In this document: in pieces, positions 24,638 to 58,764 of the stretch
How the letters are laid out: each line of letters opens with the position of its first letter
Numbering within the stretch: position 1 is the first letter of the stretch
Assembly (NCBI GenBank): GCA_036391995.1
Contig: DASVYU010000015.1
Span: 350-64,349, forward strand
DNA from: Patescibacteria group bacterium
Lineage (GTDB): Bacteria; Patescibacteriota; Minisyncoccia; Moranbacterales; GWC2-37-73
Direction of reading: 5' to 3'
DNA length: 64,000 nucleotides
Translations under genes and position numbers: made by a program
Notes under the pieces: model-generated
What the model saw: the letters and a program-made list of their open reading frames with translations, nothing else
The model's database searches: none
What the model was told of the DNA's origin: nothing

Positions 24638-24717
24638 ATTGACTAGAAGTTATTACTAAGTACTCCCATTGTACACATCAAAATACATCGAGTCAAAGCC
24701 AAATTAGACCACAAAAA

Positions 24718-24745
24718 AGACGCCACGCAAGGCGTCTTTGGAAGT
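24718..24745 (-). terminator. intrinsic terminator after rplA
   Basis: On the minus strand: agacgccttgcgtggcgtcttttttgtgg. Confidence 0.6.
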
Positions 24746-24763: not shown

Positions 24764-25459
24764 CTAGAGCTGCACTTTAATGGAAGGTCCCATTGTGGAG
24801 CAGACAGCGATCATAGTCACATATTTGCCTTTAGCTCCAGCTGGCTTGGCTTTCTGAAGAGCATCCATGAAAGCTTCGTAGTTTTCCTTGAGCTTGGCGG
24901 CATCAAAAGAAACTTTGCCGATTACTTGATGCACATTAGCCGTATTGTCATTCTTGAAGCTCATTTTGCCTTTCTTAAGCATCTCCACAGCCTCCTTGAT
25001 TTTGTCAGTCACTGTGTCAGTCTTAGGGCTTGGCATGAGTCCACGGGGTCCAAGGATTTTGGCCACCTGCGCCAATTTAGGCATCATTTCAGGCGAAGCC
25101 ACCAAAACATCAAAAGCTTCCGCTTTGCCATTTTTAATCTTTTCAATAAGTTCCTCTCCTCCTACGATGTCAGCTCCTGCATCCTGTGCATCCTTGGTTT
25201 TGCTTGAAGTCACAACTGCGATCTTTACAGCTTTACCAACTCCATGAGGCAAAACGACTGATCCACGAACTTGCTGATCGCCTTGCTTTGGATCGATAGC
25301 CAATTTTACATGCACTTCAACTGATTCATCAAACTTGGCGATTTTTGATTCGCGCACGAGCTGCATAGCCTCTTCAGCGCTGTACAACTTGTTGCTTTCG
25401 ATCTTTTCCGAGACTGCTCGGTACTTTTTTCCTCTCTTCATAGTTTTTGCGTGGTACAA
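24764..25459 (-). CDS. rplA: 50S ribosomal protein L1
   Basis: 231 aa. MKRGKKYRAVSEKIE ... VEVHVKLAIDPKQGDQQVRGSVVLPHGVGK. Confidence 0.9.
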   Translation of the reverse strand: MYHAKTMKRGKKYRAVSEKIESNKLYSAEEAMQLVRESKIAKFDESVEVHVKLAIDPKQGDQQVRGSVVLPHGVGKAVKIAVVTSSKTKDAQDAGADIVGGEELIEKIKNGKAEAFDVLVASPEMMPKLAQVAKILGPRGLMPSPKTDTVTDKIKEAVEMLKKGKMSFKNDNTANVHQVIGKVSFDAAKLKENYEAFMDALQKAKPAGAKGKYVTMIAVCSTMGPSIKVQL

Positions 25460-25498: not shown

Positions 25499-25924
25499 TT
25501 AGTCTTCAATCTTGATTCCCATTGAACGAGCTGTTCCTGCAATGATCTGCATTGCACCTTCCACATCGTTCGCATTGAGGTCAACCATCTTAGTCTTAGC
25601 GATCTCTTCCAGTTGAGCTTTGGTCACTTTGCCAACTTTGTCCTTAAGCGGATTGGCAGCTCCTTTGCCTGCGCCTGCGGCTTTCTTCAAGAGTTCAGCG
25701 GCTGGAGCAGTTTTCATGATAAAGTCGAATGAGCGATCTTCATACACTGTGATTTCCACTGGCACTACTTCACCCATCTTGTCCTTGGTTGCATCATTGA
25801 AGCGAGTGCAGAATTCCTGGATCGCAATACCGTGCTGACCAAGCACTGGTCCTACTGGAGGCGCTGGATTAGCTTTTCCTCCCACGATCTGGAGCTTGAT
25901 GACTACTTTTATTTTCTTTGCCAT
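25499..25924 (-). CDS. rplK: 50S ribosomal protein L11
   Basis: 141 aa. [33 protein letters not shown]. Confidence 0.9.
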
Positions 25925-26042
25925 ATTCGTCTAATAAATCTTTAATTATATTTCAGGCCGAGCCGCATGGTTTTTTGCGAGAAGCAATCAGCGAATTTCC
26001 ACATAGGCCGATTTCGCAACTCCGCGCGGTTACCATCAAAAC

Positions 26043-26588
26043 TTACATCTTTCTTATCTGCAAAAAGTCCAGTTCCACAGGCGTTTCGCGTCCGAAGATG
26101 GAAACGAGAACTTTGACTTTGCCTTTCTCTTCATCAAATTCCTGCACTTTGCCATCGAAATCTTTGAATGGTCCATCATTGATCTTGACTGAATCACCAA
26201 CCTTGAGATCAATCTTGTATTTCGGCTCAGCCACACCCATGCGCCTCTTTAGCATCTCAATCTCAGCAGGATCCACAGGAGTAGGAGTTGTTCCAAGGCC
26301 GATGAATCCGGTCACATTAGGCGTGTTGCGCACCACATACCAGGAAGCATCCGTTACCATCATATCCACCAAGACATATCCAGGATAGATCTTTTCCTCC
26401 ACAGTCGTTCTCTTGCCATTCTTGATTTTTATTTTCTTCTCAGTCGGAACCATCACATCGAAGATGAGGTCTTGCATATCCATGGATTCAATACGCTGCT
26501 TCATGTTGCGAGCAACATTGTCCTCATAGCCAGAGTAGGTGTGGATCACATACCATGCGCGTCCGTGATGTTGGGTCTGCTTAGCCAT
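26043..26588 (-). CDS. nusG: transcription termination/antitermination factor NusG
   Basis: 181 aa. NGN domain (WYVIHTYSGYE) and C-terminal KOW (VGDSVKINDGPFKDFDGKV). Confidence 0.9.
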   Translation of the reverse strand: MAKQTQHHGRAWYVIHTYSGYEDNVARNMKQRIESMDMQDLIFDVMVPTEKKIKIKNGKRTTVEEKIYPGYVLVDMMVTDASWYVVRNTPNVTGFIGLGTTPTPVDPAEIEMLKRRMGVAEPKYKIDLKVGDSVKINDGPFKDFDGKVQEFDEEKGKVKVLVSIFGRETPVELDFLQIRKM

Positions 26589-26609
26589 TTTTGTAAATAT
26601 TATTTCTAA

Positions 26610-26798
26610 TTATTTGATAATGAATGTCTTCAAAATGTAACTGAAAACATAATCCAACCCTCCCAAAAGCAATGCCATTACCACACTGACAGAAACCACC
26701 AGGATCGTATAGTTGATTGCCTGTTTTTGAGTAGGCCAATTCACTTTCATAAGTTCAGCCTTGGCTTCTTGGAAAAATGTTACCACTTTGTTGGTCAT
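26610..26798 (-). CDS. secE: preprotein translocase subunit SecE
   Basis: 62 aa with a single TM (ILVVSVSVVMALLLGGLDYV). Canonical secE-nusG-rplK-rplA order. Confidence 0.8.
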   Translation of the reverse strand: MTNKVVTFFQEAKAELMKVNWPTQKQAINYTILVVSVSVVMALLLGGLDYVFSYILKTFIIK

Positions 26799-26807
26799 AT
26801 TTTTAGG

Positions 26808-26838
26808 GTTTTTTAAAAAGCCCTGGGGGCTTTCTTAT
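26808..26838 (-). promoter_or_regulatory. leader hairpin with U-run (terminator-like) between secE promoter and secE start
   Basis: Minus strand: aaagccc-cca-gggcuuuuu, located 9 nt before the secE ATG and downstream of the TTGACA/TATATT promoter. Confidence 0.45.
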
Positions 26839-26844
26839 GGCTTA

Positions 26845-26873
26845 AATATACAGCATAGCCGGTTTTTTGTCAA
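26845..26873 (-). promoter_or_regulatory. sigma70-like promoter (TTGACA-17 bp-TATATT) for secE-nusG-rplK-rplA
   Basis: Minus strand: TTGACAaaaaaccggctatgctgTATATT. Confidence 0.55.
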
Positions 26874-26882
26874 TAATCAAAA

Positions 26883-26900
26883 AATCCCCTAACAGGGATC
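26883..26900 (-). terminator. intrinsic terminator after tRNA-Ile
   Basis: Minus strand: gatccc-tgttag-gggat-tttttt, directly 3' of tRNA-Ile. Confidence 0.55.
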
Positions 26901-26906
26901 GTTTTG

Positions 26907-26980
26907 TGGGCTTACCAAGATTCGAACTTGGGACCTCGTCATTATCAGTGACGCGCTCTAACCAACTGAGCTATAAGCCC
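26907..26980 (-). tRNA. tRNA-Ile (anticodon GAT), no encoded CCA
   Basis: gggcttatagctcagttggttagagcgcgtcaCTGATAAtgacgaggtcccaagttcgaatcttggtaagcccA. The full cloverleaf folds by hand, with discriminator A. Confidence 0.9.
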
Positions 26981-26998
26981 TTGAATGGGCACTTTTTG

Positions 26999-27071
26999 TG
27001 GACCGGACAGGACTCGAACCCGCTACCTCCTCAGTGCAAATGAGGCGCTCTACCAGGTGAGCTACCGGCCC
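26999..27071 (-). tRNA. tRNA-Ala (anticodon TGC), no encoded CCA
   Basis: gggccggtagctcacctggtagagcgcctcaTTTGCACtgaggaggtagcgggttcgagtcctgtccggtccA. The G3:U70 identity pair is present. Confidence 0.9.
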
Positions 27072-27092
27072 TTATTTGCTACAAAAACTATT

Positions 27093-27118
27093 ATACAAGA
27101 AAGAAAATATTTGTCCAT
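27093..27118 (-). promoter_or_regulatory. putative promoter (TGGACA-16 bp-TATAAT) for the tRNA-Ala/tRNA-Ile unit
   Basis: Minus strand: tGGACAaatattttctttcttgTATAATagtttttgtagcaaataa, followed by the tRNA-Ala 5' end. Confidence 0.45.
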
Positions 27119-27266
27119 ACCCGCCTAAAACTCCTCTTGACATAGGGTGTATAATAAAGACAATATCCGAGGAATGCGAGGTTCTTTCACAACCTAAAAA
27201 GGAGGTGAGATCCTATTTAACATCTTAACTTCGCATTTCCTGACTCCCTCAATACCGAGGTCCGCC

Positions 27267-27587
27267 ATGAAAAACAAGAAAAATCGACTGAAAATGGCAT
27301 CCACGAAAAGAAGAGAATCCGCACGTCTAGACAATGCCGAGAAGGAGGACGAAACAAGAAGTGGGAGTATTGCGGGACAAATGGCTACCAACAAGTTCGT
27401 TCAGGGTCAAGATTGGCTACACAATCAAGTAAACAAAGGCCTTGAAAAAGCCGGCAAAGGAAACCCCGCACAAGATAGCCCTGAAACAAAGGCAATCTTG
27501 AGCCGTTTAAAACCCAAGCCTCATCCGGAACTCGCCTATGATGAGCCTGGTTTGTATCCAGACAAATCACAAATCTTCTCAAGATGA
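27267..27587 (+). CDS. hypothetical hydrophilic protein (low confidence)
   Basis: 106 aa, K/E-rich with no TM. A hairpin (gaagcccg...cgggcttc) lies between it and the convergent trxB. No SD is adjacent to the ATG. Confidence 0.3.
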   Translation: MKNKKNRLKMASTKRRESARLDNAEKEDETRSGSIAGQMATNKFVQGQDWLHNQVNKGLEKAGKGNPAQDSPETKAILSRLKPKPHPELAYDEPGLYPDKSQIFSR

Positions 27588-58350: not shown

Positions 58351-58764
58351 TTATTTTTTAATACTAACAAAATCGTTTAATGCAAGCTTGGTAATCCTTG
58401 TAATTTTAGGATTATTTAAAAAATTTTCAGCAGTATCTTCAATAATAGCCTGCCCTTCATGTAGCACTAAGAAATTCTTGGCTACATTTTTTACAACAAA
58501 CACATGTATATTGTGTTCAACACCGTCTAATTCAATTGTTTTAAGGTAATCATTTAATTTATAAAACTCATGTCCAGACAATTCTAGCTCTAGCTCTTCA
58601 TTTAGCTCTCGTTCCAATGCCTGCATCTCGTTTTCACTACCCTCAACAGCACCACCAAACATGGCAATCCTGCCAGGATTCAATATCTTGGCGTTGTCAT
58701 CTTTATGTTGCAAAAGAATCTTGCCTTCTTTAGTTATAAGCAAAGCATGGCTAGCATTTAGCAT
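58351..58764 (-). CDS. NUDIX hydrolase
   Basis: 137 aa. Canonical Nudix box GGAVEGSENEMQALERELNEELEL. Only 12 nt upstream of ileS, same strand. Confidence 0.8.
   Translation of the reverse strand: MLNASHALLITKEGKILLQHKDDNAKILNPGRIAMFGGAVEGSENEMQALERELNEELELELSGHEFYKLNDYLKTIELDGVEHNIHVFVVKNVAKNFLVLHEGQAIIEDTAENFLNNPKITRITKLALNDFVSIKK

Follow-up and report, generated by a model that had tools for sequence, protein, structure and literature searches.

What is the function of a terminator-shaped hairpin that lies directly between the promoter of an operon and its first gene? This question is raised by the secE-nusG-rplK-rplA operon of a Patescibacteria group bacterium (GenBank assembly GCA_036391995.1), which was analyzed within a window of 64,000 nucleotides (nt) corresponding to positions 350 to 64,349 of contig DASVYU010000015.1. 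The window is the whole stretch of DNA analyzed, and all coordinates given below refer to it. On the minus strand, the promoter of the operon is followed within a few nucleotides by a hairpin with a short G-C stem, a U tract and a run of six A residues (A6). Based on the sequence of this leader and its comparison with related and distant bacteria, the chances are about even that the element represents a promoter-proximal, factor-dependent attenuator or pause site of the secE-nusG-rplK-rplA transcript.

Promoter, hairpin and U tract ahead of secE

A preliminary description of the locus had placed a TTGACA-17-TATATT promoter on the minus strand, a hairpin within approximately 10 nt of it and then the secE start, with the terminator of an upstream tRNA unit in the same spacer. 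The minus strand of positions 26500..27300 was read for the layout of the leader, tRNAs were identified by means of ARAGORN and Rfam, and proteins were assigned by Pfam. All elements of the leader, including the terminator of the tRNA unit, were recovered in this order, and Pfam confirmed SecE, NusG, L11 and L1 in series as the products of the operon (Table 1). The secE promoter (26873..26845) scored 11/12 and is among the three best promoter-like sites in 10 kb; promoter-like sites overall were not enriched in the window (23 found vs. 16.9 expected). The hairpin begins 9 nt past the -10 element and comprises nine pairs, four of them G-C. For the predicted leader of 46 nt, a folding energy of -10.9 kcal/mol was calculated, compared to -4.4 ± 1.9 kcal/mol for shuffled sequences (z = -3.5; 0/200 shuffles as good). 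A regular expression describing the element matched once in the 64-kb window, and a covariance model assigned 50.6 bits to the secE leader and 19 bits to the best unrelated match. Moreover, none of the eight other strong promoters of the window is followed by a comparable hairpin. Within the window, only two tRNAs passed the Rfam gathering threshold, and a permissive search of positions 25900..27300 returned nothing meaningful over the leader.

In order to evaluate the conservation of the element, 80 related species-level loci were fetched and secE was located in each of them; 79 of these loci include the region upstream of secE. The nearest NusG relatives are 83–92% identical and belong to metagenome-assembled genomes labelled Candidatus Moraniibacteriota/Moranbacteria, Parcubacteria or Patescibacteria; the window represents part of a Moraniibacteriota (Patescibacteria) chromosome. 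A strict pattern was defined as TTGACA, spacer, TAnnnT, a purine run, GCC...GGC, at least four U residues and then usually A6. Conservation of hairpin and U tract in relatives, on which the preliminary description had made its claim depend, was clearly borne out: the strict promoter, the hairpin and at least four U residues are present in 78 of the 79 assessable relatives, and a corresponding element was found in all six loci of Candidatus Doudnabacteria described below. The remaining relative (L060) carries a diverged version, namely TTGACA-17-TACATT followed by GCCC-GUG-GGGGC and UGUUUUUU, in which the A run is lost and the hairpin and the U tract are kept. The SecE proteins of the relatives are just 44–77% identical to the SecE of the window.

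Tabulated counts "of 79" refer to the window together with the 78 loci showing the strict pattern. TTGACA occurs in 78/79 of these sequences (TTGACG in L062), the spacer measures 17 nt in 77/79, and TAnnnT is present in all. A stem of three to five G-C pairs is directly followed by U4-7 in 79/79 sequences, and U4 or U5 precedes an A run in 68/79. Within the 78 distinct sequences, the first four positions past the stem are U in 100% of cases, and A precedes the core at positions -1, -2 and -3 in 100%, 99% and 86% of them, respectively. Exactly A6 was found in 61/79 sequences, and A6 is kept even in those with 50–220 nt inserted before the ATG. The inner part of the hairpin including the loop (roughly 3–7 nt) is represented by 48 different sequences.

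In 65/79 sequences, the -10 element and the G-C core are separated by 13–16 nt; the gap between U tract and ATG, in contrast, varies between 12 and 222 nt. Due to this fixed distance on one side and variable distance on the other, the hairpin is considered part of the promoter rather than of the ribosome-binding region. Four deep-branching loci carry the hairpin approximately 12 nt farther from the promoter and keep a U7 tract. Since hairpin and U tract are retained in these four loci as well as in L060, they represent the invariant core of the element. Applied to the 80 loci, the regular expression matched the secE leaders and a single unrelated place; the covariance model, searched over 460 kb of relatives, returned only secE leaders and their reverse complements, one per locus. 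Approximately one third of the relatives (e.g., L006, L021, L029, L035, L015 and L077) feature repeat-rich or palindromic inserts of 50–220 nt between the hairpin and the secE ATG, which look like small mobile repeats.

A NusG search starting from the window yielded only relatives of at least 86% identity, and breadth was obtained instead by re-seeding from the metagenome locus L183; the protein search seeded with this locus identified the clade as Candidatus Doudnabacteria. The pattern used for scanning metagenomes, AAGCC-N3-10-GGCTTTTWAAAAA, was too loose, with 106 of 120 matches representing unrelated coding sequence or ordinary terminators. The scan provided 14 further secE leaders, some of them accompanied by NusG proteins 67–72% identical to that of the window, and the matches with a promoter at the right distance were all secE leaders. 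Six Doudnabacteria loci were fetched via their NusG proteins, with the motif not being used as a criterion. Upstream of secE, all six possess a terminator-shaped hairpin and UUUU, followed by six A residues in five loci and by five A residues in the remaining one, and a promoter-like -10 element precedes the hairpin in 5/5 loci whose upstream sequence was examined. In five of the six, the core-flanking A-U pair is replaced by G-C (AAG-GCC...GGC-CUUUU), and the direct tally revealed no mismatched intermediates. Furthermore, the element occurs in at least three other lineages whose NusG differs by approximately 30%, giving in total at least five NusG lineages about 30% apart.

For pair counting, an ungapped subset of 36 distinct relatives and a direct tally were used; a plain MAFFT alignment of all copies was unusable, and the MAFFT alignment in the RNAalifold run misplaces loop gaps. 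Across the 36 ungapped copies, 95% of the cells are paired. RNAalifold applied to the whole leader of 30 relatives revealed no conserved structure besides the hairpin. The outer pairs of the stem are A-U or G-U, with A-to-G changes in the 5' arm standing opposite invariant U residues and thus giving G.U pairs. Because these changes are sensible only in RNA of this strand, and with the compensatory A-U to G-C change in five Doudnabacteria as decisive help, we conclude that the element acts on the sense strand at the RNA level.

Strength of the hairpin and the Bacillus precedent

The leader hairpin has the make-up of an intrinsic terminator, i.e., a G+C-rich hairpin with a U tract directly after it, and lies at the weak end of the range. 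The operon-end terminator after rplA served as the genome's own yardstick for a full-strength terminator. Terminators downstream of rplA comprise 3–9 G-C pairs, have a median stem energy of -8.9 kcal/mol and are followed by 5–8 U residues, compared to 3–5 G-C pairs, -4.6 kcal/mol (core only) and 4–5 U residues for the leader hairpin. Their stem sequences are different in every species, whereas the leader stem is invariant. Past the U run, the leader continues with an A run; the sequence following the operon-end terminators of the same genomes is inconsistent and lacks the A6 run (A run in 0/40 examined). Since the invariant leader hairpin is weaker than the terminators downstream of rplA, selection maintains the weak version.

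The best solved relative of the NusG encoded in the window is the 177-residue NusG chain 8ehq_G (2e-62), which we take to be B. subtilis NusG. In the window protein, the Y, N and T residues of the motif swYvvrNTp align with Y77, N81 and T82 of 8ehq_G, whereas E. coli NusG features H, S and V at these positions. Y/N/T was found at the pause-proficient positions in all 13 NusG sequences compared, including that of the window and covering all motif-bearing lineages. Judged by these residues, the NusG proteins concerned appear to be of the pro-pausing Bacillus type.

Terminators of B. subtilis that need NusG and/or NusA are characterized by an A tract ahead of a short G-C stem, weak A-U/G-U pairs that prolong this stem and a distally interrupted U tract (Mandell et al. 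2021, PMC8060035). The leader hairpin likewise has an A tract before its stem, weak A-U/G-U pairs at the stem base and a distal interruption of its U tract. The NusG pause motif TTNTTT occupies positions -11 to -6 of the non-template strand, and the pause hairpin lies 11–12 nt upstream of the pause (PMC8060035, PMC11602163). With a presumed pause or 3' end, the best registers of this motif reach 5/6 in U5 forms, 4/6 in U4 forms and the full match in the U7 clade; they place the pause within the A6 run, 9–11 nt past the stem. These registers seem compatible with NusG pausing, not compelling. The leader element thus resembles NusG-dependent terminators of B. subtilis in its A tract, its terminal pairs, its distal U interruption, the position of the hairpin 10–12 nt before the expected pause and the Y/N/T type of NusG. 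It differs from them in matching TTNTTT at only 4–5/6 positions in most copies and in lying within approximately 30 nt of the start, and NusG dependence is a prediction here.

The preliminary description had compared the locus to NusG-dependent autoregulation at a leader terminator in Bacillus. As an established mechanism, this precedent did not hold, since leader-terminator autoregulation in B. subtilis is assigned to NusA (Mondal et al. 2016, as summarised in PMC12288461). Neither autoregulation nor secE is mentioned in the text of the NusG Term-seq paper (PMC8060035), a broad literature search retrieved no phrase for NusG autoregulation, and a NusG review is silent on it, too. The comparison nevertheless has a kernel in published data, namely a conserved weak terminator before nusG at which termination falls from 14.93% to 0%. 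The supplementary Term-seq tables of Mandell et al. 2021 (eLife, PMC8060035) list a B. subtilis intrinsic terminator "secE+68 nt" as POT 117779 (+), with the upstream sequence UUGCCAAAA, the hairpin CCCGUUCAGCGGG, the tail UUUUUUAUU and a dG of -5.6. The value of 14.93% was recorded in the wild type, and 0% in both the NusA-depleted strain and the delta-nusG strain. POT 117779 is not discussed in the text of that paper, and the site has no assigned function.

B. subtilis and representatives of three other Bacillaceae genera (L208–L211) possess a TGnTATAAT extended -10 element just past the secE stop codon. In all four, AAAA(A)-CCCG-N5-CGGG-UUUUUU follows 20–23 nt past the -10 element and approximately 110 nt ahead of nusG. 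A promoter with a minimal terminator before nusG is therefore real and conserved in Bacillaceae, and in B. subtilis it yields 3' ends in vivo. The arrangement itself had to be corrected: the Bacillus element is located between secE and nusG and not, as previously assumed, upstream of the first gene of the operon.

POT 117779 and the element of the window share a promoter followed within a few tens of nucleotides by a minimal hairpin (A4-6, a 4-bp all-G-C stem, a U run), the placement ahead of nusG-rplK-rplA, a hairpin dG of approximately -5 kcal/mol and a NusG of the same pro-pausing type. For POT 117779, low factor-dependent termination was measured in vivo, whereas termination in the window is predicted. 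Moreover, POT 117779 begins approximately 14 nt or more from the presumed start and features a CCCG/CGGG stem, U6, no A6 run and a leader of approximately 110 nt after it, in contrast to the GCCC/GGGC stem of the window. The established NusA case is similar in that a sub-optimal intrinsic terminator is located between the promoter and the gene of an elongation factor stimulating such terminators; this layout, a terminator between promoter and factor gene, is also that of the secE leader. Factor and operon are different, and the NusA feedback was experimentally demonstrated, whereas feedback at the secE leader is a prediction. A sub-optimal leader terminator before the gene of a transcription factor is thus of a known kind (NusA; rho by a different route).

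In E. coli K-12, the secE leader (L201:402-425) contains a G+C-rich hairpin, TTTGCCTCGCGATCGCGGGGTGAA, between a TATAAT promoter and secE, which was flagged as terminator-like by the scan. A leader hairpin ahead of secE/nusG thus occurs in a third phylum.

Layout of the locus and its neighbourhood

The features of the locus are compiled in Table 1.

Table 1. Features of the secE-nusG-rplK-rplA operon and the adjacent tRNA unit (window coordinates).
Feature	Position	Strand	Basis
tRNA-unit promoter TGGACA-16-TATAAT	27117..27090	-	promoter scan
tRNA-Ala(UGC), gene 1 of the upstream tRNA unit	26998..27071	-	ARAGORN; Rfam tRNA 61.5 bits
tRNA-Ile(GAU), gene 2 of the tRNA unit	26906..26980	-	ARAGORN; Rfam tRNA 76.1 bits
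tRNA-unit terminator GAUCCCUGUUAGGGGAUU (GAUCCCU-GUUA-GGGGAUU), then UUUU	26879..26900	-	terminator scan; fold -9.3 kcal/mol
secE operon -35 element TTGACA	26868..26873	-	promoter scan
secE operon -10 element TATATT, spacer 17 nt from -35	26845..26850	-	promoter scan
Predicted transcription start (A, 7th nt past -10)	26838	-	promoter geometry
Leader hairpin AGAAAGCCC-CCA-GGGCUUUUU	26815..26835	-	folds; covariance-model match 50.6 bits
G-C core of the hairpin	26820..26830	-	
U5 tract of the hairpin	26815..26819	-	
A6 run directly 3' of the U tract	26809..26814	-	conserved
Remaining A-rich leader CCCUAAAAAU, without Shine-Dalgarno sequence	26799..26808	-	
secE (ATG at 26798)	26610..26798	-	Pfam SecE 6.8e-20
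nusG, B. subtilis-like, motif swYvvrNTp	26043..26588	-	Pfam NusG + KOW
rplK (L11)	25499..25924	-	Pfam Ribosomal_L11_N + Ribosomal_L11
rplA (L1), start TTG 25459 or ATG 25441	24764..25459	-	Pfam Ribosomal_L1 1.3e-58
Operon-end terminator AAAGACGCC-UUGCGU-GGCGUCUUU, then UUU	24716..24739	-	scan; -14.4 kcal/mol, z = -4.4

Only 11 of 61 crude open reading frame (ORF) calls in the window are preceded by a Shine-Dalgarno-like motif, and leaders are A/T-rich. The missing motif ahead of secE is therefore normal for this genome, and translation initiation in the window seems to be largely Shine-Dalgarno-independent. At positions 27195-27215, the plus strand reads AAAGGAGGTGAGATCC (minus strand GGATCTCACCTCCTTT), which resembles the 3' end of 16S rRNA or a perfect Shine-Dalgarno sequence. 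This site lies approximately 125 nt upstream of tRNA-Ala, with no ORF at the proper distance.

The genes of tRNA-Ala(UGC) and tRNA-Ile(GAU) are usually located in the spacers of rRNA operons; here, the two stand alone as a unit that has a promoter and a terminator of its own (26906-27117, minus strand). Among the relatives (L001-L080), the pair adjoins secE in either orientation, the order always being Ala then Ile. No rRNA was found in the 64-kb window nor in any of the 200 loci looked through for the lineage's own boxA. The rest of the window encodes ordinary housekeeping genes.

Within the operon, scans called no promoter-like or terminator-like site in the nusG-rplK spacer (118 nt; 25925-26042, minus strand). 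This spacer folds at -27.9 kcal/mol and has a sequence block in common with L001, L006 and L021-L023; in many other relatives it measures only 8–30 nt. It could represent an autoregulatory leader for L1/L11 or an insert. In Doudnabacteria, the secE-nusG-rplK-rplA cluster is interrupted by a YdjM-family gene between secE and nusG (L202, L204, L207) and by a DUF5671 gene between rplK and rplA (L204, L205, L207); the leader element is nonetheless kept.

Proposed attenuation and competing explanations

Interpretation of the element as an attenuator builds on the linkage of promoter, hairpin and U tract, its deep conservation, its weakness compared to terminators of the same genomes, the NusG residues and the Bacillus parallel with its published 3' ends. 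RNA polymerase would start at the strong TTGACA-17-TAnnnT promoter, and after approximately 25–32 nt the nascent RNA would form the 3–5 bp G-C stem, extendable by A-U/G-U pairs between the purine run and the short U tract. Part of the polymerases would pause and release at the hairpin, and the remainder would read on into the operon. With a sub-optimal stem and a sub-optimal U tract, the share of terminated transcripts should be governed by NusA and NusG, and this dependence would result in negative feedback on the NusG-encoding operon. For these bacteria, we infer the transcription start, the occurrence of termination or pausing, the NusA/NusG dependence and the feedback. A more far-reaching version of the proposal, namely that the hairpin is a NusG/NusA-sensing terminator and part of an old, widespread and undescribed feedback loop shared by Bacillaceae and several Patescibacteria lineages, is considered doubtful, though a serious candidate. 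Moreover, since only A residues, those of the conserved A6, are incorporated at the release positions, the site might in addition reflect the ATP level through its efficiency.

Several results weigh against attenuation. During early elongation, sigma and NusG compete for the clamp helices (NusG review); with a terminated RNA of only about 25–32 nt, the clamp-helix site required by NusG may still be taken by sigma, which makes an effect of NusG uncertain. No antiterminator structure is possible, and regulation must therefore come from trans-acting factors or NTP levels. The hairpin follows the promoter far more closely than attenuation would require, which suits a hairpin at the 5' end, and the conserved A6 run is left unexplained. 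TTNTTT is matched only partly in most copies. Furthermore, the leader hairpin escapes the generic terminator scan of the minus strand (at least 5 pairs and at least 5 T in an 8-nt tail), because just four pairs make up its G-C stem and its U run is engaged in pairing with the A run upstream; extension of the stem leaves an A-rich tail. Covariation statistics within Moraniibacteriota were uninformative, with 5 of 9 pairs being invariant and the G-C core never varying. Finally, the value of 0% in the B. subtilis delta-nusG strain is confounded, as this strain carries a nusG::kan cassette immediately downstream of the terminator.

The tight spacing would be explained if the hairpin were a 5'-terminal protective stem-loop, shielding the operon mRNA from 5'-end-dependent decay (RppH, RNase J/E-type) and thereby raising the yield of an essential, highly expressed operon; the U tract would then matter only as pairing partner of the 5' purine run. 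Stem-loops a few nucleotides from the 5' end stabilise the ompA mRNA in E. coli and the aprE and ermC mRNAs in B. subtilis. Like them, the leader hairpin is located only a few nucleotides from the point at which a highly expressed mRNA is predicted to begin; to our knowledge, those stem-loops need no U tract, are not sequence-invariant and are not terminator-shaped. Protection of the 5' end agrees with a hairpin whose position follows the promoter instead of the start codon, and with a purine run complementary to the U tract in which G.U is tolerated. With the start placed 7 nt past the -10 element, the unpaired 5' tail would comprise 0–6 nt in 70/79 sequences (mode 3; 3 nt in the window). A NUDIX/Nudt16-like protein encoded at 58351..58764 (minus strand) could, on weak evidence, be an RNA 5' pyrophosphohydrolase. 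However, nothing but U occurs in the U tract and nothing but purines in the 5' arm, whereas a plain stem extension would be free to covary, and such a change was seen only once. The four deep-branching loci, with a tail of approximately 15–16 nt, keep hairpin and U7, the Bacillaceae counterpart begins farther from its presumed start and is a mapped terminator, and the A6 run is not accounted for by protection either. As the eight other strong promoters of the window lack a 5' hairpin, protection is not a general strategy of this genome. Taken together, these points weigh against protection as the only function of the hairpin, and a protective stem-loop is judged rather unlikely. Termination directed at transcripts from upstream is a further option, in which the hairpin would be the terminator or insulator of the preceding unit with the secE promoter nested in front of it ("operon concatenation"), and polymerases freshly started at this promoter would largely escape. 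In 33/72 assessable loci, a co-directional upstream tRNA or ORF without its own terminator precedes the secE promoter, with gaps down to 2-50 nt, and the deep-branching clade, with a co-directional ORF of 177 amino acids 15-50 nt upstream, has the strongest form (U7). The Bacillaceae nusG promoter likewise lies between the secE stop codon and the terminator. In Salmonella, the tufB terminator overlaps the secE promoter, an overlap that affects the regulation of nusG (Brandis et al. 2019, PMC6735719). There as here, a terminator is physically interlocked with the promoter of secE-nusG, and there the arrangement sets the NusG level. At tufB-secE, however, it is the promoter itself that is overlapped by the terminator of the upstream operon, as seen in the E. 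coli sequence, and the order of genes is conserved. In the present case, transcription from the secE promoter covers the entire hairpin, and the upstream neighbour shows no conservation, opposite to what concatenation predicts. In 28/72 loci, the neighbour is divergent, leaving nothing to terminate, and the element is fully kept; the tRNA unit of the window has its own terminator 40 nt upstream. No mechanism is known for the immunity of promoter-proximal polymerases, and concatenation is regarded as distinctly unlikely.

The A6 run, in turn, would be explained by a Nus loading site of the boxB-boxA type, in which the hairpin and GC-UUUU(U)-AAAAAA bind NusB/S10 and assemble an antitermination or autoregulatory Nus complex. 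In rrn leaders, a hairpin and then boxA are located just past the promoter, and the layout of the secE leader is similar. The window sequence GCTTTTTAAAA agrees with 10/11 positions of GYTCTTTAANA, a consensus that is gamma-proteobacterial and may not be the lineage's own. The boxA sites upstream of the Nus-factor genes suhB, nusE and nusB are autoregulatory (Baniulyte et al. 2017, PMC5725501), and the secE leader resembles them in that an 11-mer, first U-rich and then A-rich, precedes the gene of a Nus factor in the 5' leader. However, the sole mismatch of the window sequence affects C4, and a C4T/T6C double change abolishes Nus recruitment at suhB (PMC5725501). The Doudnabacteria form CCTTTTAAAAA reaches only 8/11, the deep-branching forms GCUUUUUUUAAGA and GCUGUUUUUUAGA are worse, and the resemblance concerns low-complexity U-rich and A-rich strings. 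No boxA was found upstream of nusG by Baniulyte et al. 2017 (PMC5725501), and a boxA-type function is accordingly rated as quite improbable. At the DNA level, the inverted repeat AAAGCC..GGCTTT could be an operator bound by a dimeric repressor over the start site, as it forms a perfect palindrome over +4 to +24 with an invariant half-site. The half-site spacing of approximately 3 to 8 bp and the 48 inner sequences are incompatible with a fixed dimer footprint. A one-arm A-to-G change gives G.U in RNA but an A.C mismatch for DNA symmetry, and the asymmetric A6 extension is conserved; a repressor site is thus extremely improbable. Four further candidates were rejected. A riboswitch-like attenuator has no room for an antiterminator, the hairpin is far too small for an L1 or L11 binding site, the stem is too short for an RNase III site, and a bidirectional terminator would require a convergent gene, which is not possible inside secE.

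Attenuation, 5'-end protection and the other roles are not mutually exclusive, since after read-through the hairpin is located at the 5' end of the mRNA anyway. In the literature searched, an invariant GCC/GGC core with a U4-5A6 tail at the very start of the secE-nusG-rplKA mRNA of several Patescibacteria lineages is undescribed, and the Bacillaceae counterpart has drawn no comment either. NusG represents the one transcription factor common to all life, and the control of its level is essentially undescribed outside the Salmonella tufB-secE junction. The element described here is a compact, testable candidate control point for nusG and also for secE, L11 and L1, in bacteria that have tiny genomes and very few recognisable regulators. 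The Bacillaceae parallel makes the idea testable at once in B. subtilis. Moreover, the element adds a new conserved cis-regulatory RNA motif for genomes of the candidate phyla radiation (CPR), which are almost unrepresented in RNA family databases.

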